A DNA stretch of 64,000 nt. Origin: Klebsiella phage vB_KpM_FBKp34. The position numbers and the translations under genes were made by a program. This document shows positions 3,090-61,003 of this stretch, in pieces; the first letter of the stretch is position 1, and each line of letters begins with the position of its first letter. Location: sequence record MW394390.1; one strand, written 5' to 3'. The notes beneath the pieces were generated by a model. That model ran no database searches, was not told the origin of the DNA, and saw only the letters and a program-made list of their open reading frames with translations.

Positions 3090-3328
3090 ACTTTAGCCAC
3101 CCAGCCTTTTTCAATTAAGATTTCAAAGATTGGCATATGTTCATTGTATTCTAAAATATCACCAACAGAATATGCACCTAAGCAGGATAAAGCAGCACCG
3201 TAATTTTCAAATGCACGGATATCAGTAATACGTAATTTCATTATTTCCCCTCATTCATAAGCTTTTGTTTAGCAAGGATTAAATCCATTGCTGTGTAAGG
3301 TTTATTCGTCCCATGATACTCTAAAGGT

Positions 3329-3550
3329 TTAATCATCCCATTTTTCCTTATAACTATAGCCAATTAATTCACCGTGTTGCCTAAGTGAAGAAATGTCAAT
3401 AGGGAAAATATTTCGTGTTTTAAGATTTTCCATATCAACTGTATATCTAAAAACTTGAATAACTACACAGTGAGCATACACTACGGAATCACCTAGCTTA
3501 TATGGTAGTTTTACAATCATTCCCGGACAAACAAAAGTATTTTGATTCAT
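3329..3550 (-). CDS. hypothetical protein
   Basis: 73-aa ORF. Confidence 0.4.
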   Translation of the reverse strand: MNQNTFVCPGMIVKLPYKLGDSVVYAHCVVIQVFRYTVDMENLKTRNIFPIDISSLRQHGELIGYSYKEKWDD

Positions 3551-3918
3551 TATTTTCTACTCTTCAACTTATGAACGATGTCTAAATCCCCTTTAGAAAG
3601 ATAATACACACCAAAACGAGTGTCAATATAAAATTGACGTTTAGTGTGGTCCATGCAAAGTTTTGCTTCTTGTTTGCATAAGACTTCTTTGTAAGGTGTA
3701 CCTTGACCACCATCCCTGAAGAAAGAAACAGTAAGGATTTGTTCATCATCTTCATTCATAAAGAAACTATCAATTTTGACAAATTTCCCAGAAGTAACAC
3801 CAGGGAATAATTCATTTAAACTATAACGCCCATCTGGGTTAATGGAATCAAACTCTTGTTTAATCAGATCTTTATCTTGTACAATCTGAACTTTAATTGG
3901 TACATAGTAACCATTCAT
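3550..3918 (-). CDS. hypothetical protein
   Basis: 122-aa ORF abutting downstream ORF. Confidence 0.5.
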   Translation of the reverse strand: MNGYYVPIKVQIVQDKDLIKQEFDSINPDGRYSLNELFPGVTSGKFVKIDSFFMNEDDEQILTVSFFRDGGQGTPYKEVLCKQEAKLCMDHTKRQFYIDTRFGVYYLSKGDLDIVHKLKSRK

Positions 3919-30119: not shown

Positions 30120-30395
30120 ATGAAATTATCAGATGCACAAATCTACACTTTACGTAGAATGAATTCTGGTACAAGATACTTCATGAGAGGTGATGGTCTC
30201 AAAGGTGAAGAAGATCGAAGTGTAAGATACTCCGTAGACAGGGTAAACTGTAAATCAATCCCTGTGCTCTATGAAAAAGGTCTAGTAGAATTTTGTAGTG
30301 ATTGTTTGAAACTTAAATCTAGTTGGTATAGTATAAGACTTTCATTACTAGGCAAAGAAATCTTACAAGATCTTAAAACATCTGGAGAAAAATAA
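30120..30395 (+). CDS. hypothetical protein
   Basis: 91-aa ORF. Confidence 0.45.
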   Translation: MKLSDAQIYTLRRMNSGTRYFMRGDGLKGEEDRSVRYSVDRVNCKSIPVLYEKGLVEFCSDCLKLKSSWYSIRLSLLGKEILQDLKTSGEK

Positions 30396-31045
30396 TGATT
30401 AAGCATATCTCTTTTGACGTATGGAATACTTTGATCACTGCAAATCCTTTATATAGTGAAATTCGTACTAAAATAATTGCAAAGTATGCAAATGTAACTG
30501 ATCGTGAAGCAGGTACAATGTATCGGAAAGTAAAGAAATATTTAGACCAAAACGCAGAAAAAGGTATTTGTAGTTTTACCTCGACTGCTTGGTATGTTTT
30601 AGGTAAAAATTTAAACATGGAACCAAAAGCAATTACTCAAATGCAACGCGAATGTGAAGAAGCTTTTCTTGCATTCTCACCACGTTTAAATGAAGATTTA
30701 GTTGACCAATTAATAAGCCTTGATGACAAGTATGAACTGAGTATTAAAAGCAATACTAACTTTATTTCAGGAAGGATCTTGTCTGAAGCTGTAGGCTTTG
30801 ATAGAATGCCATGGTGTAGTTTTATGCATTTCTCGGATGAACATCTGCTTTGTAAACCAGACATTTTATTCTTTGCTAAAACTCTGCTTTCTAGTAAGCT
30901 GTCTAACCTAGCAAACTACGAAATTTTGCACATTGGGGATAGTGAAGTTTTTGATGGAAAATGTGTTGACTTAGGATTTAAGTTCTGCCATATTAAAAAC
31001 CCTGAAGACCTTTTAAACAAACTCATTAATGGAGAAGTAATCTAA
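30395..31045 (+). CDS. HAD-superfamily hydrolase (haloacid-dehalogenase-like)
   Basis: 216 aa; motif I ISFDVWNTLI (compare FDxYGTL) and motif IV HIGDSEVFD. Confidence 0.5.
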   Translation: MIKHISFDVWNTLITANPLYSEIRTKIIAKYANVTDREAGTMYRKVKKYLDQNAEKGICSFTSTAWYVLGKNLNMEPKAITQMQRECEEAFLAFSPRLNEDLVDQLISLDDKYELSIKSNTNFISGRILSEAVGFDRMPWCSFMHFSDEHLLCKPDILFFAKTLLSSKLSNLANYEILHIGDSEVFDGKCVDLGFKFCHIKNPEDLLNKLINGEVI

Positions 31046-31869
31046 TGCGTAATGAAACTCAATTCTTTACTCACGCTTTTTCTGAACTGAAATCTGCACC
31101 ATTTTCACCTGAGAAATATTCTCGTTTGAAGTTTGGTAGTGATAAAGTAGCTAAAGAATTTGGTTATGATCTTGCAGACTCATTCTTCAAGCATTATGGT
31201 GATGATTTTATTGAACACAAAGGTGTAGTTATTCCATCACCTTATAATCAAGTTAAGAATGCTGCAACAATCATGTCTGAACATTTCATGGATCGTATGA
31301 ATGACCTGTTGGTTTCTCATGGTGGTTCAAATCTCGAATGGTCCGTCATTAATCGTAAAGTTTCTTATATTAACGACTATGGTTTCCTCGATAAAGAGAA
31401 GCGTAAAGCTTTGATTGATGGAGATGTGTTCCATTTGAACAAAGGTTTTCTTGAAGGTAAGAAACTCATTTTTATCGACGACGTCAATATCACTGGGACG
31501 CATGAAGACAAACTGATTGAAATCTTGGATCATAATGAAATTAAAAATGATGCATATTTCCTGTACTATGCTAAGTACACAAAAGGTGCAGTAGATGCTA
31601 ATATTGAAGCAGCATTGAACTTTGCCGGGATCCGTGATGCACGAGATTATGTTGCATTGACAGCAGAAAAGAACCACCATCTGATTGTGCGTCCTATTAA
31701 GTTTCTGATGAGCCGGGATCCTGCGGAATTTGAAAAAGTTATTAAAGACCTTGACATTGAGTTCATCCAGAAATTATACTATGGTTGCTTAAGTGAAGGT
31801 TATCATAAGATTAAAGAATATCAGATTAACTTTAAATTTCTGATGTGGTATCTTGGTAAAAATAAATAA
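31045..31869 (+). CDS. type-I phosphoribosyltransferase-like protein
   Basis: 274 aa; KKLIFIDDVNITGTH fits the PRPP-binding signature (hydrophobic-hydrophobic-D-D-hydrophobic-x-x-T-G). Confidence 0.5.
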   Translation: MRNETQFFTHAFSELKSAPFSPEKYSRLKFGSDKVAKEFGYDLADSFFKHYGDDFIEHKGVVIPSPYNQVKNAATIMSEHFMDRMNDLLVSHGGSNLEWSVINRKVSYINDYGFLDKEKRKALIDGDVFHLNKGFLEGKKLIFIDDVNITGTHEDKLIEILDHNEIKNDAYFLYYAKYTKGAVDANIEAALNFAGIRDARDYVALTAEKNHHLIVRPIKFLMSRDPAEFEKVIKDLDIEFIQKLYYGCLSEGYHKIKEYQINFKFLMWYLGKNK

Positions 31870-31878
31870 GGAGTCATT

Positions 31879-32298
31879 GTGAAATCATTAATTATCTCTC
31901 TGAAACAAATCCTGTCAGAATCAAAAGAAGAATTATCTACGGTAGGATTGCAACTGGCAAGTCTGGGAATGTTCATGGATTCTCTAAACTATGTTTACAA
32001 GAATAAGAACGGAACTACCTTTACTTACAAAGGAGAGGATAAACGTTTTCCAAAGGAACTTACCTGGAAAGATGCAGTAATTTTGCATAATACTGGTTTC
32101 TTTCTTATTGGTGATAAAGGATTTTACCAAGTTCCTCAAATGCATGTACATTATGTTAAGAGTTATACGTTTGATCTAAAAGAAGCTGTCAACTCTTCTC
32201 CTCTGGTTAAGATTTATCTTCAGTGGAACAAAAAGAAGAAACACTGGCAAACATCTACTAATCGTATTAAATTTAACGAGGAGTATTTCAATGGGTGA
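31879..32298 (+). CDS. hypothetical protein
   Basis: 139 aa; GTG start after AGGAG. Confidence 0.45.
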   Translation: MKSLIISLKQILSESKEELSTVGLQLASLGMFMDSLNYVYKNKNGTTFTYKGEDKRFPKELTWKDAVILHNTGFFLIGDKGFYQVPQMHVHYVKSYTFDLKEAVNSSPLVKIYLQWNKKKKHWQTSTNRIKFNEEYFNG

Positions 32299-32551
32299 AG
32301 TTATCAGTTTTGATTTCAAAGAAAAGAAAAAGATTGAAAAATATGTAATTACACCTTGGAAATGTCTTGTTTGCAAAATAGCTTTCCAGTATGATTCTCG
32401 CAAAGATAAAGAGAATATGCCAAGGATTATTCTTCGTGAAGGAACTAAGCAACGTTCTGAAGAAGCAATATGCAAGAATTGCTCCCTGGATATAAAAGCA
32501 ACTGCTGAAGATTGTAAGTGGAAATATGATGAGGAAGACAGCAATGACTGA
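32291..32551 (+). CDS. hypothetical zinc-ribbon protein
   Basis: 86 aa; CLVCK...CKNC. Confidence 0.45.
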   Translation: MGEVISFDFKEKKKIEKYVITPWKCLVCKIAFQYDSRKDKENMPRIILREGTKQRSEEAICKNCSLDIKATAEDCKWKYDEEDSND

Positions 32552-32963
32552 TATCACCGAACTGGCGCAGAGCCTGAAAGCGGCAGCAGATAGAGAGATG
32601 ATTTGCCGAGATGGCGCCGAAACTTCTGAAATCTGGGAAAGAACTGTAACGCCGGAAAACATCCTCGCGCTGGTAGAGGCGCTGGAGAAGGCACAGGCGG
32701 ACCACCGACTACACGCAGCGCGGTTAATCAGCGAAAAAGCTTTGTTGAATGAGCGCATCGCCGAGCTGGAGTCCCGCACCGTGACGCTGCCGAAACCTAA
32801 AGATTCTGACCCGGGTTGGAAAATTGATCCAGAATTTATCAGCAAAGTTCAGAACGCAATAGGGTACGATGACCAATGCGAATGTTGGGAGGGTACACCT
32901 TCCATGGAGGTAGTAGAGGCCGTTTTGCTGGCCGCCGCTGGCATCAAGGTGGAGGCTGAATGA
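32544..32963 (+). CDS. lambdoid-prophage-like protein (Ead/Ea22-like?) in a GC-rich island
   Basis: the ATG at 32544 (MTDITELAQSLKAAADRE...) follows GAGGA; about 57% GC against about 36% in flanks; enterobacterial-type codon usage. Confidence 0.45.
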   Translation: MTDITELAQSLKAAADREMICRDGAETSEIWERTVTPENILALVEALEKAQADHRLHAARLISEKALLNERIAELESRTVTLPKPKDSDPGWKIDPEFISKVQNAIGYDDQCECWEGTPSMEVVEAVLLAAAGIKVEAE

Positions 32964-33139
32964 TGGCAGAGCTTTGGAAAACATATCTCACTATCGCATT
33001 CATCGGCTTGGGAGCTACGCCGATAAGCATGGTAGCGGCAAAGATTGACGTACCTGTTTGGGCGCTTATTGCCGGGCACTGCGGCGCGATTATAGCAGGA
33101 TTTATTTGTGCAGAACTTGGAAAGGGGGACAACCAATGA
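32960..33139 (+). CDS. small membrane protein (59 aa) in the GC-rich island
   Basis: MMAELWKTYLTIAFIGLGATPISMVAAKIDVPVWALIAGHCGAIIAGFICAEL; ATGA overlap with the upstream stop and TGA/ATG overlap with the downstream gene; below the ORF-track cutoff. Confidence 0.4.
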   Translation: MMAELWKTYLTIAFIGLGATPISMVAAKIDVPVWALIAGHCGAIIAGFICAELGKGDNQ

Positions 33140-33552
33140 CCAAATCAACCATAACCAGAGATGAGCTTAACGAAGTGATTTCCACATACGGAAAGCATCA
33201 CATTGCTCATCGAATGGCTAATGCATTGTTGGCCGCAATGGACAGCGAGCCGGATTGTAATGAGCGACAGCTTTTCTGTTCAACCGATACAGCTAGGATG
33301 AGGAAGGCAATCTCTGTCTCTGCTGGGACCAAGGTTGCACCGATTTATCACCATACTAAGCCAGCACCGGTAGTGCCGGATAACAGAGCTATTACTGTGG
33401 TGTTAAAATATACATCAGAGCCAAACGCCTTTGCTCCATGGGTAGCAAAAGCTTTTTATCAGTTTCATAAAGATACAGTAGATTCTTGTGTAAAAGCTTT
33501 CTCTGAAGCGTGTAATGAATCTAATATAAAACTTGAGATCATTTATAAATGA
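33136..33552 (+). CDS. hypothetical protein spanning the island junction
   Basis: ATG at 33136 (MTKSTITRDELNEV...) after AAGGGGGA; GC content decays toward the phage-like level across this gene. Confidence 0.45.
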   Translation: MTKSTITRDELNEVISTYGKHHIAHRMANALLAAMDSEPDCNERQLFCSTDTARMRKAISVSAGTKVAPIYHHTKPAPVVPDNRAITVVLKYTSEPNAFAPWVAKAFYQFHKDTVDSCVKAFSEACNESNIKLEIIYK

Positions 33553-34055
33553 ATAACTTATCAAATACAGAATTATCAAATATTAAATGGTATGCAGGAG
33601 AGGCCATGTGCCATTCTGATCCTAATTATCAACAAGAATTCTATAACCTAGTCTACCCTGGGAATGTGTTGAGTTTAGTTACTGAATTACAGCAACTTAG
33701 GGAAGATAATAAAACACTAGAAGAAACAGTTGAGGAGTTGAAAAATATTTGTGCTGAATCTTATCAAGTAGTCGGTTATCTTGCATATAGATCGGGAGTG
33801 TTTGATGAACTTCGTGTTATAAAAGCCTTAGATAATCTATCCTCTCAAGAGATGCTACATAAAGATATTTTACCTTTTTCTTTAGATGAAGATATTATGG
33901 TAAATTTTGAACAACATAAATTACGTGAGTTAGTAGATCTTGTTTGGAATACTGCTACTGAAAGTACTGAAGTGCCAAGCACAAAATGGGCTGATGAATT
34001 AATTACTAAAGTTTTTGGAGTTTATAAAAATGACAACTACTCCCCTGTTAGCTAG
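33549..34055 (+). CDS. hypothetical protein
   Basis: 168-aa ORF. Confidence 0.45.
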   Translation: MNNLSNTELSNIKWYAGEAMCHSDPNYQQEFYNLVYPGNVLSLVTELQQLREDNKTLEETVEELKNICAESYQVVGYLAYRSGVFDELRVIKALDNLSSQEMLHKDILPFSLDEDIMVNFEQHKLRELVDLVWNTATESTEVPSTKWADELITKVFGVYKNDNYSPVS

Positions 34056-34677
34056 TCGGTTAAAAGGCTACAATAAAAATATTTTTGTTGTTCCTAACGC
34101 TTTACCTTTTGATGAAAGCCAGTTTACAATTAGTAGAGATAAAGACTTCAAAAGTCCTATTGTATGGGTTGGCGGTGCATCTCATTATCCAGATTTAAAA
34201 GAAATTAAAGGTTGTTCTTTTATCAAGCCGCCGACGCTTTGTGGCTATGAACCTAAACCAGGACTTACACATGAGGAGTGGTTAAAGATCAGGGATGATC
34301 ATCCGACAGCCACATATGAAAAAGGATTACAAGAGTCTAATTATATGGACTTGTACGATGGTCATAAAGTTAGCATTGCGCCTTTATTAAATTCTGACTT
34401 TAATGCTTGCAAATCTAACTTAAAAGTGTTAGAATCTGGAGCTAAAGGATTACCTATCGTCTGCTCTAAAGTAGAACCCTACTACAATTCTATTGATTCC
34501 AAATATGTTTTATATGCAGAAACAAAACATGAATGGGAAACACATGTAAATAATCTTATAAAATATGAAGCATACAATGAAGATGTAGGTAAAGCTTTGT
34601 CTGAACATGTAAGATTACAGTATAATTTAAAAGATATTAATATCTTAAGAAAACATATTATTGAATCATTTAATTAA
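34030..34677 (+). CDS. glycosyltransferase-like protein (GT-B C-terminal-domain-like)
   Basis: the ATG at 34030 follows GGAG; KVLESGAKGLPIVCSKVEPYYNSID resembles the GT1 C-terminal E-x7-E region. Confidence 0.3.
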   Translation: MTTTPLLASRLKGYNKNIFVVPNALPFDESQFTISRDKDFKSPIVWVGGASHYPDLKEIKGCSFIKPPTLCGYEPKPGLTHEEWLKIRDDHPTATYEKGLQESNYMDLYDGHKVSIAPLLNSDFNACKSNLKVLESGAKGLPIVCSKVEPYYNSIDSKYVLYAETKHEWETHVNNLIKYEAYNEDVGKALSEHVRLQYNLKDINILRKHIIESFN

Positions 34678-40831: not shown

Positions 40832-43800
40832 TCACTCCCCGCCCGCGATAGCGGCTTCTATTCTCTCCAACCTTCTGCGCTGATACGCAGCCTCCATAGC
40901 ATTACATTCATTCATAACAAGCCGCCATTCACCTCCTGCTGGTATCGCTTCTTTGGTAACTCGCGATCCTGCCGGGCGCACAAGGACCTGCATCTCATCA
41001 GAGATCTTAACCCCCTGCTCATCGTACTGCGCCGGAATGGTTTCGTACTCATCGTCCCATGACTCCACCTGCTCAGGCTGGGCGTCCCATTCATTGCGTA
41101 CAAGCAACGCCCATTCGGTAGCGTCCTCCCCTGCGGCTTCGAATGCTTCAATAATGTCCTGAGCAATATAGCCCACATGCCAGCGCGCACTATCTTCCCC
41201 CTTCCTAGCAATAGCCCAGTCATACTTAAACCGCTTGATACTGATTGTTCCCCAGATATCAAGGATCTTATCCGGTATCCCTTCCCGTACAGGCTTACGG
41301 TCGCGGTCTGAAACAACAGTTACCGCATTCTGGGCGTAGATGTTTTTGACCGTATTACCCGGGGAGCCTATATCCCAGGTATTTGTCGCGCTGAAACCAA
41401 TATTCCCACCGAAGACAAGAGCCGAGGCGTTAAGACCAAGTGAGGTTCCGTATGCGTTTATATCGGCGGATTTAGTGGTGGCACCTCCGACATAAAATTC
41501 AACGGTACGTGTACTTGTCGACCCAGCGTTATACCCGAAGCGCATTGTAGTACCACGCAGGGTGAAACTGCCGTTTGCTGTCAAGGCGTCTGCGGTGTAG
41601 TCTCGGCGATAAGTACGCGCTGTTAGTGTCCGCTGGTTGATATTCAGAGTATCGCCAACAGCTCCAACAACCGCATCAAGGACGTACTGCCCGCTAAGAG
41701 TTCCATCAGTTTTCAGGTTACGCTTATGGATACGGGTTTCACCAGTATATCCAGTGGACGAACCTCCGGTAATATTCAGAGGAACCCCCATGAAAACGTA
41801 TGGCTTATATGCAGCTGGTACGTCTACGGTTGTCCGACTATTAGTGGAGTCAACCTCAACAACATTTACGGTAAACTCCTTGGCGAAGAAGGAACCAATA
41901 CTATTACCACCTTTGATGATTAACGGCAGATTCGTAAAGCCATAATCCTCGTAAACAGTGGTTGCGAACTTGTAATTTGTGTTCGCCCGCTGGTGTGCCG
42001 TCCAGGGGTAAATGACATCCTCGGGCATGAAGATACCACCACCAACCTTTTTGAACAGGTTATATTTAAACCCGTTACTTGGATTGACGTGGCCCCATAC
42101 ACATAAGTCTGACGTCTCAGGACGATAATCCAGTCCGACAGGGAATACCGGAATACCACCAGTGAACGCCTGAACGGCCTTGAGAATAATGGGAGTGGTG
42201 TCAGGGATAGTAAACTGCAACGACTGCTGACTACCCGCTGTACCTACACCGTCATTGTTGTTCCATTTCAAGTTCTGGATAATCGCCATCTTATAGCCAT
42301 TACCATAATCAATGGCCATTTCCGCGCGGGCAAAGAACAGGTTCTGGTTGTACCCGGCATCTGCGGAATTCTGGTCAATGTTGGCATTAGTCCAGATAGC
42401 GATGTTGGACAGGTCAAAACTTCCGGTCAGGTCTTTGTACCAGATACAGATATTACTGTGCATCGCAGGCGACAAAACTGGCAGTTGCAGGATGCCATTC
42501 GCCGCCATCAACCCATACGGAGAGAACATCTCCTTGGTGGTTTTGTGCCCGCGCATACTATCCACATCTGGCGGATTTGGATAAGTGGTGTTTGTGCTGT
42601 ACATCACACCATAGGTGCCGTATTTGAAGTCAAACCCGCCATGTGGGAATGCGCCAGTATCGTGTGTCGGACTACCGAAGCGAACGAAGTCAATGCCGTT
42701 GGTTGACGGGTACGAACCGTATCCGGCTGGCGGCACCCAGTTCTCATTAGCATCATAATACCCAAATGCGCCTGGCTCGAAAGTCAGGTACTTATAGGTT
42801 CGGTCAGGACGATACTGTGAACCGATACAGTCGATATTTAAACCGAAACCTTTCTCGTTGCCATCGTTCCACCACTTGTTAAGGATTGTAACGTAGGACG
42901 GGGTGTCTTCCATATAACAAGCCGAATAGACGGAACCACGAGCGGCGGTAGCGATGACGGATTTGTTCGGTTTGCGTTCAGTCGGGTTGTACGCCGGGAT
43001 ACTGAGATATGTCCCTGAACAATGGAAACCATGTCCAGTTTCGATCAAGTAATAATCACATTGCTGACCGCTTACGGATGATGTCCAACGCCCGTTATTA
43101 GAGATCGTTCCGCCAATCCACTGACACCAGTCGATGTGCAATCGAACACAACAGTAACGCGCCGTGCTGATATATAGATTTTTGAAGACACACCCGTAGA
43201 AGTTGCCAATCTTCTCTGGGAGAACACTAGATTTGTATGGGATGATATCGCTGGACATCACGCCATCTTCATCAATACGGACCTGCATCCCGACTAGGTT
43301 GACACGGAAATTTTCTACGCGGATGTCTTCAAAAGAACAGTACCACGGGTTAAGTGCCAGTATACCGATACCAGCAGTACAATCAGCATCCAGCGTACCA
43401 GGTACATGGTCGCCAATAATCTTCCCACCAGTCATCTGTGTGAAGCCCAGACTTACCGATTCCCAGTAGAGCTTGTTTCCGAGCGCCGTGTACACCTCTT
43501 CCACGTCTTCTACAGAGTGCTCAAATCCGTTAAGGTACTCACCAGTAACCTGGAATTTACGGGAGGCGCTGGCCTTGACGTAAATCGTGGACGCGCCGAG
43601 ATTGTAGATGACGTTGGAACGTAGCTTCGCAGCCTCTTTCCCGATACGCCACAACCCAGATGAAATATTGAACGTGATTACAGAGTAGGTGCTCTGGTCA
43701 TTGATGTTATTACCGGGCTGCATCCACAGCGGGAGTACGCTGATGATGCCGTTAACTGCCTGCCCTAAGCATACAAAATCATCAGTATCAGCTTGTGCCT

Positions 43801-44434
43801 CAGCATAGTCCGCGACTTCCTTGGCGCCGTTGGCTTTGGGGCTGATAATACCCATACCGACACCTACCTGAAGCTGGTATTCAACACCATTGGCGTTATA
43901 GATTTTTGCTTCAGTGATGACGTGAGTTCCGGCTTTTGAGGCGTCAGTGTTTCCAGTGGCTACCCATATGCCATCCCCGCCATCATTAGGTGTATAAAAA
44001 CCTCTTACACGTATTTCATCAAAAATACTAGGTAATGTAAAAATATCTATCGCAGAATCCACAGTAAACGTATAAGGAAACGAATAAAGTTTCCAGTTTG
44101 CGTCCCCTACTGGGGTATCTCCCATCAAAATTGGATTTGTGGCTGTGGCTGTAGGTGCATAATACCAACCTTTATTGATATTATCTGTGTCATAAACATA
44201 GAGTTGGTTAAAGACTGTATTAGTATTTCCTGGATTCCATTGAATCGGATTTTTGAAATAAAAATTATCAATTAAAGCTTTTCTTAATGTAGGGATATCA
44301 CCGCTCTCGGTGCTTACAACTGAAGTTGCATCCCCATTAATTACATCCCCAAGCTGGTTACTGGAGTATATTGTAAGATCTACAGCTTGGTCAAATGACG
44401 TAGCAGGGTATTGTGGAAAATTATCTGCCATCAT
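40832..44434 (-). CDS. tailspike/tail-fibre protein with beta-helix-like middle and C-terminal S74 intramolecular-chaperone domain
   Basis: 1200 aa; C-terminal VVSDRDRKPVREG...FKYDWAIARKGEDSARWHVGYIAQDIIEAF matches the endosialidase-type auto-cleaving chaperone; N-terminal 150 aa is AT-rich, the rest about 55% GC. Confidence 0.7.
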   Translation of the reverse strand: MMADNFPQYPATSFDQAVDLTIYSSNQLGDVINGDATSVVSTESGDIPTLRKALIDNFYFKNPIQWNPGNTNTVFNQLYVYDTDNINKGWYYAPTATATNPILMGDTPVGDANWKLYSFPYTFTVDSAIDIFTLPSIFDEIRVRGFYTPNDGGDGIWVATGNTDASKAGTHVITEAKIYNANGVEYQLQVGVGMGIISPKANGAKEVADYAEAQADTDDFVCLGQAVNGIISVLPLWMQPGNNINDQSTYSVITFNISSGLWRIGKEAAKLRSNVIYNLGASTIYVKASASRKFQVTGEYLNGFEHSVEDVEEVYTALGNKLYWESVSLGFTQMTGGKIIGDHVPGTLDADCTAGIGILALNPWYCSFEDIRVENFRVNLVGMQVRIDEDGVMSSDIIPYKSSVLPEKIGNFYGCVFKNLYISTARYCCVRLHIDWCQWIGGTISNNGRWTSSVSGQQCDYYLIETGHGFHCSGTYLSIPAYNPTERKPNKSVIATAARGSVYSACYMEDTPSYVTILNKWWNDGNEKGFGLNIDCIGSQYRPDRTYKYLTFEPGAFGYYDANENWVPPAGYGSYPSTNGIDFVRFGSPTHDTGAFPHGGFDFKYGTYGVMYSTNTTYPNPPDVDSMRGHKTTKEMFSPYGLMAANGILQLPVLSPAMHSNICIWYKDLTGSFDLSNIAIWTNANIDQNSADAGYNQNLFFARAEMAIDYGNGYKMAIIQNLKWNNNDGVGTAGSQQSLQFTIPDTTPIILKAVQAFTGGIPVFPVGLDYRPETSDLCVWGHVNPSNGFKYNLFKKVGGGIFMPEDVIYPWTAHQRANTNYKFATTVYEDYGFTNLPLIIKGGNSIGSFFAKEFTVNVVEVDSTNSRTTVDVPAAYKPYVFMGVPLNITGGSSTGYTGETRIHKRNLKTDGTLSGQYVLDAVVGAVGDTLNINQRTLTARTYRRDYTADALTANGSFTLRGTTMRFGYNAGSTSTRTVEFYVGGATTKSADINAYGTSLGLNASALVFGGNIGFSATNTWDIGSPGNTVKNIYAQNAVTVVSDRDRKPVREGIPDKILDIWGTISIKRFKYDWAIARKGEDSARWHVGYIAQDIIEAFEAAGEDATEWALLVRNEWDAQPEQVESWDDEYETIPAQYDEQGVKISDEMQVLVRPAGSRVTKEAIPAGGEWRLVMNECNAMEAAYQRRRLERIEAAIAGGE

Positions 44435-59093: not shown

Positions 59094-59504
59094 TTACCCC
59101 TCAGTTTTAAGGAGATTAATGATTTCTTCTTTTTTCAGGGTTGGTTTTACTTCAAGACCTTTTTCAAGAGCCATGGCAAGCAGTTCAGCTTTAGTTTTTT
59201 CTTCAAGAGTACTTTTAGCTAATTCTTTTTCTACTTGATCAAGATAGCCATCTTCAAAGGTTACAAGATATCCGAAATTAGCTTCAATGCAACCAGACGG
59301 AATAAGCTTAACACCAAATGTTTCTTTGATTAGCTCACAAAGGTGTGTAAAATTACATCCACCGATAATGCCTTTAGATTTACTAAACATTGCATAATTA
59401 GGGGTTTGCTTATTTAATTCAACGTCACTGTTAATTTTATTTAAAAAGATTAAAAACTCACTAAAGTTCCAAAAACTTTTCTGATTTTCTTTTGTTACAA
59501 ACAT
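59094..59504 (-). CDS. hypothetical virion-module protein
   Basis: 136 aa with RBS GGAGG. Confidence 0.4.
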   Translation of the reverse strand: MFVTKENQKSFWNFSEFLIFLNKINSDVELNKQTPNYAMFSKSKGIIGGCNFTHLCELIKETFGVKLIPSGCIEANFGYLVTFEDGYLDQVEKELAKSTLEEKTKAELLAMALEKGLEVKPTLKKEEIINLLKTEG

Positions 59505-59521
59505 CGGTTCCTCCGATATAA

Positions 59522-59553
59522 ATAAAGGGAGATAGCTCTCACTATCTCCCTTT
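59522..59553 (-). terminator. strong rho-independent terminator after the major capsid gene
   Basis: minus-strand AGGGAGATAGTGAGAGCTATCTCCCT perfect 10-bp stem followed by TTATTTAT. Confidence 0.7.
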
Positions 59554-59570
59554 AGATAAGGACGCTATAC

Positions 59571-60569
59571 TTAGGACATTGTGCTACGTACAACCAGTTC
59601 AGGACGAGTGTTCACAGCCAGCAGAGAGAACTCTGTTTCAATGTGAGCAGTACGATGATCCTGAATCATGTACATATAGAAGTCTTGAGCAACTTCGTTG
59701 GCATCAGAAATAGCATCAGCAGGAGCATAGAACGCCTGGAACATATTCGGAATACCACGTGGGAAGAAGTAAGCTTCATTAGTCGGGATAGTTCCATACG
59801 GATCTTCTACATAAAGAACACCGTTGAAGAACCAAGAACGAGCATCAGAGTTACCACCAATACGATCACGCAGAGGAGACTGACCAGCAATACCATTATA
59901 AGCTGCACGAGTAAACGAGTTGCTTACAAGAGCCTGGAAATACTGACGACCACACAGTGCAACAATATCAGTAACAGCAGTACCAGTACCTTTGTTGTCG
60001 ATAATGAAACCACGAATTTCACTTTCAATAGTGTCAGTAGGGTTAACAGTAGTAGAACTGAAAGCTACATCAACAACTTCCTGGGTTACACCCCAAGTCT
60101 GGTAGTAGTCATAGTGCTCGTTAGCGTTTGCAGCAGTAACACCTGCATAGCTACGACCCATAACAGCTTCAGTAAAGATACGCTCTTTAGTGACAGACTC
60201 TGCATTACGAATCTGATTCAGCTTACGAGTAACAGCTTGCTGTACTGTAGCAGGAGTATCTTCACCAAGATCCAGAAGATTTGTAAAGTTCTGTACATCT
60301 ACAGCTTTAATGTTAGCATCAACTGGGAAGAATGGTACAATGAAGGCCACTTCTGAAGGTTGATTACCAGTGATCCAGTTACGTTCACCTTGACGTTGAC
60401 GAGCTTCAATCAGAACTTGTTCATCAACAATACGCTGTGCACGTACAGTGGTAGAACGGTCATAATTGATGTCGAACAGATCAAGAGATTCAACAACACC
60501 CGGAGTACGAGTGGTAATCTCAATCAGTGGAGACAGATCATAAAACTGGTTAGTTAAAAAATTAGGCAT
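59571..60569 (-). CDS. major capsid protein (HK97-like fold)
   Basis: 332 aa; higher GC and biased codon usage of a highly expressed gene; followed by a strong terminator; position after the decoration/scaffold genes. Confidence 0.65.
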   Translation of the reverse strand: MPNFLTNQFYDLSPLIEITTRTPGVVESLDLFDINYDRSTTVRAQRIVDEQVLIEARQRQGERNWITGNQPSEVAFIVPFFPVDANIKAVDVQNFTNLLDLGEDTPATVQQAVTRKLNQIRNAESVTKERIFTEAVMGRSYAGVTAANANEHYDYYQTWGVTQEVVDVAFSSTTVNPTDTIESEIRGFIIDNKGTGTAVTDIVALCGRQYFQALVSNSFTRAAYNGIAGQSPLRDRIGGNSDARSWFFNGVLYVEDPYGTIPTNEAYFFPRGIPNMFQAFYAPADAISDANEVAQDFYMYMIQDHRTAHIETEFSLLAVNTRPELVVRSTMS

Positions 60570-60586
60570 TTAGATATTCTCCTTTA

Positions 60587-60988
60587 TTAAGTAGTAGGCA
60601 GAAGGACTTTATCAGTCAGTTTCAGACCTTTCGCTTCCAGTGCGATTACACCTGCGTCATCAATGGCAGAACCATCAGAGTAGACAACACGGTAACGATT
60701 CAGAGTTGCATCTTGTTTAGCAACAACAGCACGGAATGAAGTACCTACTGGGATAGCATCTAGACCAAATGGCTGGTCAGCCCATACGAATACGGTGTCT
60801 GCATCAGCAGCGGCAGCAGCTTCTGTCAGGTCATCGGCAATAACGGAACCAAACTGAAGAGTCGCAGTCATTGTCAGGCTAACCTCACGGAAAGCGTGAC
60901 CAATGTCACTACCCATTACATAACCCAGAACTAGATCTGAGTAGTAAGGCATACGGCGGTCAGTTGGCACATAAGCTTGTTTTGGCAT
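60587..60988 (-). CDS. capsid-associated protein (decoration?)
   Basis: 133 aa, Ala/Val-rich, between the scaffold and the MCP. Confidence 0.35.
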   Translation of the reverse strand: MPKQAYVPTDRRMPYYSDLVLGYVMGSDIGHAFREVSLTMTATLQFGSVIADDLTEAAAAADADTVFVWADQPFGLDAIPVGTSFRAVVAKQDATLNRYRVVYSDGSAIDDAGVIALEAKGLKLTDKVLLPTT

Positions 60989-61003
60989 TGTTTACCTTCC
61001 TTA

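Follow-up and report, generated by a model that had tools for sequence, protein, structure and literature searches.

A GC-rich three-gene island in a lytic Klebsiella phage

Klebsiella phage vB_KpM_FBKp34 (MW394390.1) is a lytic myovirus of 141,376 bp with a GC content of 36.0%, and its published description makes no mention of the feature analysed here (PMC8386662): a GC-rich island of about 0.85 kb that begins at position 32,544 of the 64,000-nucleotide (nt) stretch under study (hereafter the window). The island carries an Ead/Ea22-like gene, a gene for a 59-amino-acid (aa) membrane peptide and the first part of a chimeric third open reading frame (ORF3). FBKp34 is a virulent phi92/phAPEC8-like myovirus, and its backbone around the island is 97-99% identical to that of Klebsiella phage KP13-16 (Stephanstirmvirinae).

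All island genes and their neighbours are + strand genes with intact ORFs, part of a long block in which every gene has this orientation. The constant left flank is a native AT-rich 86-aa gene (32,291-32,551, +; phrog_15360), a homolog of phi92 gp168 whose product is 98.8% identical in KP13-16. It is followed by the gene for the 139-aa Ead/Ea22-type protein (32,544-32,963, +; GC 0.536, GC at third codon positions [GC3] 0.571), designated FBKp34 gp145, by the gene for the 59-aa membrane peptide (32,960-33,139, +; phrog_4918), which has two hydrophobic segments, and by ORF3 (33,136-33,552, +; 138 aa), a chimera of a GC-rich N-module and an AT-rich tail that spans the compositional junction. The right neighbour, a native AT-rich 168-aa gene (33,549-34,055, +), would provide an alternative right anchor for recombination. 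Consecutive genes overlap, by 8 nt between the 86-aa and Ead-like genes and by ATGA at the following junctions.

This overlapping arrangement suggests that the cassette would be expressed by operon read-through and translational coupling. The last ~20 nt of the 86-aa gene hold a sequence (GAGGA...CAGCA) that is like a ribosome-binding site (RBS) and resembles the sequence upstream of prophage Ead genes. An ATG at 32,526 (MMRKTAMTDI...) was considered as the start of the Ead-like gene and rejected, as homologs all begin MTDITEL. A consensus scan found no terminators in or beside the island, and the sole same-strand promoter-like match near it was a weak 9/12 site at the right junction (33,380-33,409). 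Promoter-like sites in the region (29, with 20.9 +/- 5.4 expected) were not enriched; the scan for both kinds of signal was based on consensus sequences only, so that phage-specific promoters could escape it.

Foreign composition and boundaries

The composition of the island is foreign to the phage. GC content across 32,544-33,400 is 0.511, as against 0.362 for the whole window, which corresponds to a robust z of 6.1 relative to 74 equal-length, non-overlapping intervals (mean 0.362, standard deviation 0.042). The tetranucleotide profile agrees, with an L1 distance between island and window of 0.57 compared with 0.34 +/- 0.07 for background intervals. In 200-bp steps, GC climbs from 0.31-0.33 at 32,200-32,499 to 0.51-0.57 at 32,500-32,799, stays at 0.43-0.55 as far as 33,499 and falls to 0.30 at 33,400-33,599; change points at 150-bp resolution mark the rise at ~32,557 and the fall at ~33,443. 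A first-pass annotation, made from the letters of the window, had started the island at 32544, with an abrupt rise at about 32545. That start is exact: 32,544 is the ATG of the first ORF (MTDITELAQ...). The same annotation had the composition decaying back by 33300, which is about 100 bp too early: the real right edge lies at about 33,385-33,440.

The shift in codon usage noticed at the same time shows in GC3, which is 0.57 in the Ead-like gene, 0.48 in the 59-aa gene and 0.47 in the first 88 codons of ORF3 (0.47-0.57 overall), compared with 0.20 in the last 50 codons of ORF3 and 0.22-0.32 in the neighbouring native genes. Both GC and GC3 of the island equal those of the donor genes described below; its modules have a prophage-like GC of 0.50-0.56 within a 36% GC phage. 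Substitutions relative to prophage copies showed no AT bias (19 GC-to-AT and 19 AT-to-GC), so the test for AT-biased amelioration was negative. The lack of bias, coupled with donor-like GC and GC3, makes the island material look recently imported, though not from one source.

A shortened Ead/Ea22 derivative

In the 139-aa protein, an N-terminal leader is followed by a shortened coiled coil, the linker RIAELESRTV and, over ~65 aa, the C-terminal domain (CTD; WKIDPEF...DDQCECWEGTPS...AAAGIKVEAE). Homologs are numerous (n = 2,672), mostly from Klebsiella, and many carry the Ead_Ea22 family domain PF13935. The closest relative other than the protein itself, P0002 (175 aa, with PF13935), aligns with 99% of the query at 67% identity (E 5e-58), and dozens of other PF13935-positive Klebsiella proteins cover 99-100% of the query. 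Among the matches listed from a database of 5.8 billion proteins, the FBKp34 protein itself appears as P0001, at 100% identity, and no other full-length relative of the 139-aa protein exceeded 68%. A BLASTP comparison with the Ead_Ea22 protein of K. pneumoniae prophage L018 (E 5e-10) showed a common leader, LALVEALEKA, RIAELE and the terminal AAAGIKVEAE, and a contig scan of one genome per species returned a single locus, in Klebsiella grimontii.

In published work, Ea22 consists of a short N-terminal segment, a coiled coil bearing the Ead_Ea22 signature and a CTD that varies, and at full length it is a tetramer (PMC10834534). An AlphaFold2 (AF2) prediction and a modular alignment of ten alleles revealed the same three-part plan here. 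The AF2 model has helices at residues 4-21 and 37-77, the latter with block-mean predicted local distance difference test (pLDDT) values of 82-96 (90-96 over residues 41-70). A separate region of lower confidence makes up the C-terminal end, and only the coiled coil is modelled confidently. Across 59 aligned Ead-like proteins, mostly from Klebsiella, the CTD shows many invariant positions, among them W92, D95 and C112-E-C-W-E-G-T-P-S120. Profile searches of PDB sequences gave nothing significant.

Homology and architecture thus place the locus within the Ead/Ea22-like mosaic family, in agreement with the first-pass annotation, which had compared the first ORF with Ead/Ea22-type proteins. What does not carry over is the family signature itself: the FBKp34 allele has no PF13935 hit of its own at E <= 0.1, and for this reason it is best called a shortened Ead/Ea22 derivative. 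Against a PF13935 gathering score of 27 bits, the alleles of the sister phages L011 and L014 (39.4 and 43.5 bits) and the donor genes (65-90 bits) all pass, and the KP13-16 allele (19.2 bits) falls under the cut-off. Lambda and Stx phages are the only ones for which the tetramer and a pro-lysogenic effect of Ea22 on infection outcome have been published (PMC7093339, PMC10834534), and Ea22 has no known partner (PMC10834534, PMC7093339, PMC10695390). As FBKp34 is lytic, the published pro-lysogenic role cannot apply to it as such.

The membrane peptide and the chimeric third gene

The 59-aa peptide matches phrog_4918 over its full length (residues 1-59 on profile positions 1-59 of 59, E 1.1e-39). 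Its hydropathy profile, with hydrophobic segments at approximately aa 8-27 and 31-52, bears out the membrane peptide predicted at first pass. Its relatives fall into 25 protein clusters, mostly from Klebsiella, with Citrobacter and Cronobacter also represented; the one-genome-per-species contig scan with this peptide gave nothing. At the nucleotide level, the gene is 93-94% identical to prophage and temperate-phage copies, which are located between Ead_Ea22 and DUF551 genes.

ORF3, described at first pass as a junction-spanning ORF, is real and is conserved in the phage lineage. Its GC-rich N-module (aa 1-83; 33,136-33,384, +) reads MTKSTITR...DSEPDC.ER.LFCSTDTARMRK.ISVSAGT...PAPVVPD and is found in DUF551-type and 'Eaa1' prophage proteins; within it, the DSEPDC.ERKLFCSTDTARMRK motif is nearly invariant across 45 aligned sequences. 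Prophage proteins among the 611 homologs often end in DUF551 (PF04448), or else in other diverse C-terminal domains, and ORF3 departs from them exactly where they diverge from one another (...PAPVVPD|). No DUF551 match was obtained in ORF3 itself; by sequence it is not a DUF551 protein and has only their N-module in common. An AF2 model of ORF3 was poor (pLDDT 59) and was left out of the fold search.

The remainder of ORF3 is an AT-rich constant tail (aa 84-138, RAITVVLKY...NIKLEIIYK; 33,385-33,552, +; GC 0.327, GC3 0.196), which forms the usual right flank of the site. Six lineage proteins share it at 98% identity, L015 at 82% and P0226, a short metagenomic protein, at 78%; every prophage homolog retrieved lacks it. 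Full-length (138-aa) relatives of ORF3 occur only on phage-sized contigs of ~140 kb. In L015 the tail follows an Ead linker (ELESRPVTVKLPY...), which indicates that it behaves as a resident C-terminal module to which imported N-modules are joined in frame.

A different cassette in each lineage genome sampled

To place the island in its lineage, we compared eight genomes: FBKp34, KP13-16, L010, L011, L012, L014, L015 and L029, the last a JGI metagenome contig. Flanks are 97-99% identical to the window in KP13-16, L010, L011, L012 and L014, 92-95% in L015 and 90% in L029. The left junction is the same or nearly so in seven aligned lineage sequences, with AT-rich backbone up to the RBS and the ATG at 32,544. 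Similarity ends within the conserved Ead leader, at 32,570-32,598, and picks up again at 32,923 in L010, at 33,226-33,236 in KP13-16, L011 and L012, at 33,346 in L014, at 33,416 in L015 and at 33,738, inside the 168-aa gene, in L029; between break and resumption only short linkers match.

Cassette content differs in all eight genomes, and every cassette is GC-rich, over 350-1,050 bp. FBKp34 carries the 139-aa Ead-like gene, the 59-aa gene and the 138-aa ORF3, and L010 genes of 153, 59 and 138 aa. Two genes occupy the site in KP13-16 (173 and 138 aa), L011 (182 aa with PF13935, and 138 aa), L012 (a 173-aa gene different from that of KP13-16, and 138 aa) and L014 (236 aa with PF13935, and 145 aa). 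A single gene is left in L015, where a 136-aa product fuses an Ead-like N-terminal part directly to the constant tail, and in L029, where a 251-aa product fuses such a part to the C-terminal two thirds of the 168-aa protein. Where island segments are homologous between genomes, they are 91-93% identical, compared with 98.7-99.4% for the adjoining segment of tail plus 168-aa gene, and island segments of this kind are 3 to >10 times more divergent than the backbone. This excess of island over flank divergence fits separate imports better than vertical descent.

More distant relatives were also inspected. Phage 05F01 (L008), a K. quasipneumoniae phage and distant member of Stephanstirmvirinae, has a GC-rich (45-49%) Ead/Ea22-like gene of 154 aa (3230-3694) directly after its gp168 homolog; its counterpart of the 86-aa protein is 43% identical to that of FBKp34. 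In Escherichia coli phage phi92, a small AT-rich gene, gp167, follows gp168, and GC does not rise there. KP2025, FKP3 and KP13-26 were tried as empty-site references and rejected, being not syntenic downstream of the hydrolase/PRTase genes.

A patchwork drawn from Klebsiella temperate phages, prophages and plasmids

Searching phage genomes by BLAST returned 90-114 records, nearly all of Klebsiella phages, at 90-99% identity and each partial. Klebsiella prophage, temperate-phage and plasmid matches together cover 90% of 32,544-33,415, with 76% of this stretch matched at at least 90% identity; the bacterial and prophage matches anticipated by the first-pass annotation are therefore present. About 11 donor loci were compared at the DNA level, and among them no single donor covering the island was found. 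The island instead resolves into a mosaic of modules of 30-230 bp that are 87-100% identical to sequences of Klebsiella prophages, temperate phages and conjugative plasmids.

The mosaic can be followed from left to right. The left junction and the Ead leader (32,530-32,598, +; RBS, ATG, MTDITELAQSLKAAA...), a candidate left recombination anchor, are 89.9% identical to ST11-VIM1phi8.1 and Chronis; within this module, 49 nt (32,542-32,590) match the Ead_Ea22 gene of L018 at 100% identity, and 47 nt (32,544-32,590) match a gene of phage LASTA annotated as ead/Ea22-like, also at 100%. From the leader to linker 1 (32,547-32,696, +), identity is 97.3% to P0002, the K. pneumoniae Ead-like gene of L027. 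Linker 1 itself (P.NILALVEALEKAQ; 32,658-32,696, +) is 93-97% identical to L002, L003, L004, L006, L016 and L018, and it recurs in 05F01 and in the lineage alleles L011, L014 and L029, the alleles being otherwise unrelated. Linker 2 (RIAELESRTV.LP; 32,752-32,791, +), at the boundary of coiled coil and CTD, is 92-98% identical to L002, L004, L006 and L016; a wider stretch (32,752-32,807) is 89% identical to L003, and the linker is also found in L010 and L015.

The CTD module (32,757-32,968, +) is 96.7% identical to a 217-aa gene (P0080; L021, L022), 97.7% to genes on Klebsiella plasmids and 89.3% to the Ead gene that L027 carries (K. pneumoniae). Of the eight lineage members, FBKp34 alone has it, and the other lineage contigs gave no match. 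Adjoining it, the 58/59-aa gene module (32,931-33,161, +) is 93-94% identical to 58/59-aa genes. Three overlapping matches account for the N-module of ORF3: 33,130-33,258 (+) at 96% to VLCpiS10a, 33,125-33,381 (+) at 86.8% to L026 and 33,230-33,352 (+) at 84.5% to Chronis. As to the plasmid matches, the island query hit 542 plasmid records, mostly at 32,757-32,968, of which 492 were typed as conjugative; a few of the records are from E. coli. The gene concerned encodes 214-217 aa and is carried on large Klebsiella plasmids; in L021 (4001-4654) it lies near genes for gp32-like, 5'-3' exonuclease and RecA-like proteins.

Gene order points to the same pool. Prophage L018 has CII, HNH, HTH_36, lambda P, two small ORFs, DUF4752, Ead_Ea22, the 59-aa gene, DUF551, NinB, NinG and Q. 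The induced prophage ST11-VIM1phi8.1 has DnaB, Ren, two small ORFs, Ead_Ea22 (280 aa), a 58-aa gene, DUF551 (215 aa), NinB, NinE and NinG, and the K. pneumoniae contig L016 mirrors it (DnaB, Ren, Ead_Ea22, 58 aa, DUF551, NinB/NinE, NinG, Q). In gene order, the island therefore corresponds to the early-right accessory region found in lambdoid prophages of Klebsiella. A recent acquisition from a host prophage, as initially proposed, holds insofar as the Klebsiella temperate-phage pool is the source; a single recent insertion does not agree with the patchwork or with eight different cassettes in eight genomes.

Neighbouring genes and other variable stretches

The 168-aa gene to the right of the island may have ties to the same family. 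Residues 54-113 of its product are 50-57% identical to lambdoid EaA/DUF550 segments and 43% to phi92 gp011, and the protein carries a P.N(V/I)L.LV.EL motif like that of Ead proteins. In L029 (1089-1844), a GC-rich Ead-like N-terminal part is fused in frame to its C-terminal part. Alignment with Ead alleles by hhalign was weak (probability 3%), the aligned motif being the expected one, and a scan of IMG/VR with the 168-aa protein gave nothing. On these sequence similarities, the 168-aa protein may be an old, ameliorated member of the Ead mosaic family.

Downstream of this gene, a stretch present in all relatives is missing from FBKp34, amounting to 1.6 kb when measured against KP13-16 and 2.7 kb against L010-L015. 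The missing stretch holds genes of 56 and 184 aa, in most relatives an NAD-dependent epimerase gene, and glycosyltransferase genes. The deletion joins two copies of the 9-bp sequence TGACAACTA (junction at 34,031-34,039, region 34,030-34,677). It creates an in-frame fusion in which the 56-aa gene supplies its ATG and first codons (MTT) and a glycosyltransferase gene roughly its C-terminal two thirds (phrog_7162, positions 98-308 of 309).

Upstream, 30,395-31,869 encodes a native 216-aa protein (called 'hydrolase' in relatives) and a 274-aa ComF-like PRTase_3 protein (PF15610, E 1.5e-52); the pair is widely conserved in Stephanstirmvirinae and is followed by a DUF7390 protein at 31,879-32,298. 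Small AT-rich genes vary here among near-identical relatives (31,869-31,879 and equivalents in L001, L010, L012 and L015). Between the genes for the PRTase-like and DUF7390 proteins, KP13-16 has one of 66 aa and L009/L010 one of 107 aa; L012 and L015 have one of 82 aa upstream of the PRTase gene. This turnover of small genes suggests that the whole early region is plastic, with foreign composition only at the Ead site.

Elsewhere in the window, a composition comparable to that of the island occurs only at ~40.3-44.3 kb. This second stretch is a tail-fibre/tailspike-type ORF of 1,200 aa (40,832-44,434, -; ~48-51% GC, ~3.6 kb), whose nucleotide identity is 84-88% to tail-fibre genes of Klebsiella phages of 42-44 kb (phi1_146045, Kpn BHU2/3), KP2025 and cp18. 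Its sequence suggests another import, in this case the horizontal exchange of a receptor-binding protein. GC rises a third time, more mildly, at 59,500-61,000 (0.42-0.45 in 500-bp steps; tetranucleotide distance 0.47). The window holds no tRNA genes, and the GC-rich stretches are therefore not tRNA clusters.

Recurrent exchange as the probable origin of the island

Taken together, these results make it likely that the island is a three-gene accessory cassette derived from modules of the early-right ('nin') region of Klebsiella lambda-like prophages and situated in a recombination hot spot of FBKp34-like myoviruses. The presence of eight different cassettes between fixed flanks in eight genomes argues for recurrent exchange at short conserved module boundaries and not for one insertion. 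Such exchange has precedents: relaxed short-homology recombination generates lambdoid mosaics, lytic lactococcal phages acquire prophage DNA, and Red/Rad52-like recombinases drive lambdoid mosaicism.

We propose that an initial illegitimate capture would have brought Ead-type DNA to the site, after which the captured leader, linkers and N-module could act as short homology anchors. During infection of a lysogen or co-infection, double crossovers with prophage or temperate-phage DNA would then replace the segment between anchors. The resulting cassette would be expressed through read-through of the same-strand operon and translational coupling. Its Ead-like product may serve as an oligomeric coiled-coil scaffold of the Ea22 type that presents a swappable CTD to a host or prophage partner. 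The most economical reading is that the cassette is a dispensable module for host or prophage interaction, under rapid diversifying turnover, and not a structural or replicative element.

Several results weigh against this reading. No empty site was found, as all eight lineage genomes and 05F01 carry GC-rich Ead-type DNA; the comparison with insert-less relatives suggested in the first-pass annotation thus had no reference, and breakpoints can be defined only against alternative alleles. A single donor carrying the whole combination could exist outside the loci sampled. The FBKp34 allele itself does not match PF13935 at E <= 0.1, and lambda ea22 is non-essential (PMC10695390). Functional leads are scarce as well: a Foldseek search of the PDB with the AF2 model of the Ead-like protein yielded nothing with E below 2; none of ten proteins searched against PADLOC-DB 2.0 had a match at E <= 0.01 (all three encoded by the cassette, the native 86-aa and 168-aa proteins on either side, and five sister-phage alleles); and scans of the island proteins with Pfam, NCBIfam and PADLOC revealed nothing beyond phrog-level groups without an assigned function. 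Finally, some alleles are deletions or fusions (L015, L029), which are equally compatible with neutral churn.

These last points lead directly to the strongest competing explanation, namely that the island is neutral debris, a functionless by-product of phage-prophage recombination tolerated at a dispensable locus. The non-essentiality of lambda ea22 (PMC10695390), the lack of the PF13935 core in the FBKp34 allele, the deletions and in-frame fusions in L015 and L029, the absence of any known defence family and the lack of a functional lead from PDB sequence and fold searches would all fit such debris. Yet all eight genomes keep their cassette ORFs intact and on the same strand with overlapping start and stop junctions, every fusion to the constant tail preserves the reading frame, and the tail remains 98% conserved despite the turnover of the modules upstream of it. 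The many invariant CTD residues across the 59 aligned Ead-like proteins point the same way, and we regard neutrality as rather unlikely. Still less probable is the origin suggested at first pass, a single recent moron from one host prophage, forming an independent transcription unit with an exclusion or host-interaction function. The sharp compositional edges, a composition identical to that of donor genes and the lack of any amelioration signal speak for it, as does the small membrane peptide, exclusion proteins being typically of about this size. Other observations speak against it: the island is a patchwork with no single donor found, and every relative has a different allele at the site. 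No empty site was found, and the consensus scan gave no terminator and, as the only same-strand promoter-like match nearby, the weak 9/12 site at the right junction; the genes overlap their native neighbours in an operon and are translationally coupled to them. A moron that benefits a lysogen also makes little sense in a lytic phage (PMC8386662), and an exclusion function is so far without support, PADLOC having given no matches.

Two further possibilities deserve hardly any credence. Host prophage reads could have been mis-joined into the phage contig: the island is short, and phage lysates often contain induced prophage DNA. Nine independent assemblies (KP13-16 and 05F01 from GenBank, one NCBI and five Logan contigs, and one JGI metagenome contig) nevertheless have GC-rich Ead-type DNA exactly here with in-frame junctions, and the 139-aa protein is deposited in GenBank as FBKp34 gp145, so that an assembly artefact is extremely improbable. 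Equally remote is the reverse direction of transfer, in which the modules would have arisen in the virulent phage lineage and spread to prophages. Nothing specific favours it, although direction is deduced solely from composition and abundance; the prophage-like GC of the modules in a 36% GC phage, their presence in thousands of Klebsiella chromosomal and plasmid proteins, and the absence of the AT-rich tail from the prophage homologs retrieved all oppose it.

Recurrent exchange also invites a more far-reaching idea. The site could be a dedicated exchange slot through which Klebsiella Stephanstirmvirinae sample the Ead/Ea22 modules of host prophages, bounded on the left by the end of the gp168-like gene and on the right by the invariant 55-aa tail or the EaA-like 168-aa gene. 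Since the N-terminal and coiled-coil modules taken up differ hardly at all from their counterparts in resident prophage proteins, the hybrids could co-oligomerise with prophage Ead/Ea22-type proteins and might neutralise or hijack them. We consider this reading as a whole unlikely. Were it true, it would represent molecular mimicry directed against resident prophages or prophage-linked defences and updated by recombination with the target itself.

Implications and comparison with known systems

The FBKp34 island offers a clean, well-bounded case of gene flow, recurrent but limited to one site, from the Klebsiella pool of temperate phages, prophages and plasmids into a myovirus that is strictly lytic. 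The locus could mark the hosts and prophages that a phage has recently met, and it provides a convenient model in which to measure lytic-temperate recombination at short homologies. Its natural chimeras may also help to probe the function of the Ead/Ea22, 59-aa and DUF551 accessory genes. Phages of this type are considered for therapy, where propagation on lysogenic production strains can change phage gene content.

A close counterpart is the Ead_Ea22 / 58-59-aa / DUF551 trio of Klebsiella lambdoid prophages (ST11-VIM1phi8.1, L016, L018), which the cassette resembles in gene order, orientation and overlapping junctions and in the 93-100% nucleotide identity of leader, linkers and 59-aa gene. 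It differs in that the third gene retains the N-module only, with DUF551 swapped for the lineage-specific AT-rich 55-aa tail, and in that virulent-phage genes flank it, whereas replication and nin genes flank the prophage trio. With the lambda Ea22 / P22 Ead family (PF13935, IPR025153), it shares a conserved N-terminal leader, coiled coil, linker and swappable CTD as well as extreme allelic mosaicism, and PF13935 is present in homologs of the FBKp34 protein, the sister alleles in L011 and L014 passing Pfam. Unlike typical members, the FBKp34 allele is short (139 aa) and does not match PF13935 at the cut-off used; its CTD is unrelated to the solved CTD of lambda Ea22 (no PDB sequence match), and its gene resides in a strictly lytic 141-kb myovirus.

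As a compositionally distinct accessory insert between native phage genes, the island also recalls the morons of temperate phages, but it has no terminator and a weak promoter-like match only, is coupled into an operon and belongs to a lytic phage; a classical moron it is not. Another parallel is the exchange between virulent phages and resident prophages by short-homology recombination, which likewise leaves segments of foreign composition bounded by short conserved sequences in common with temperate phages, with several alleles in near-identical backbones. What sets the present case apart is the Klebsiella lineage of Stephanstirmvirinae in which it occurs, the single fixed site and the constant tail fused to variable N-modules. 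Mosaicism between virulent and temperate phages is already established, and the well-resolved instance in FBKp34 appears to be a new addition to it.

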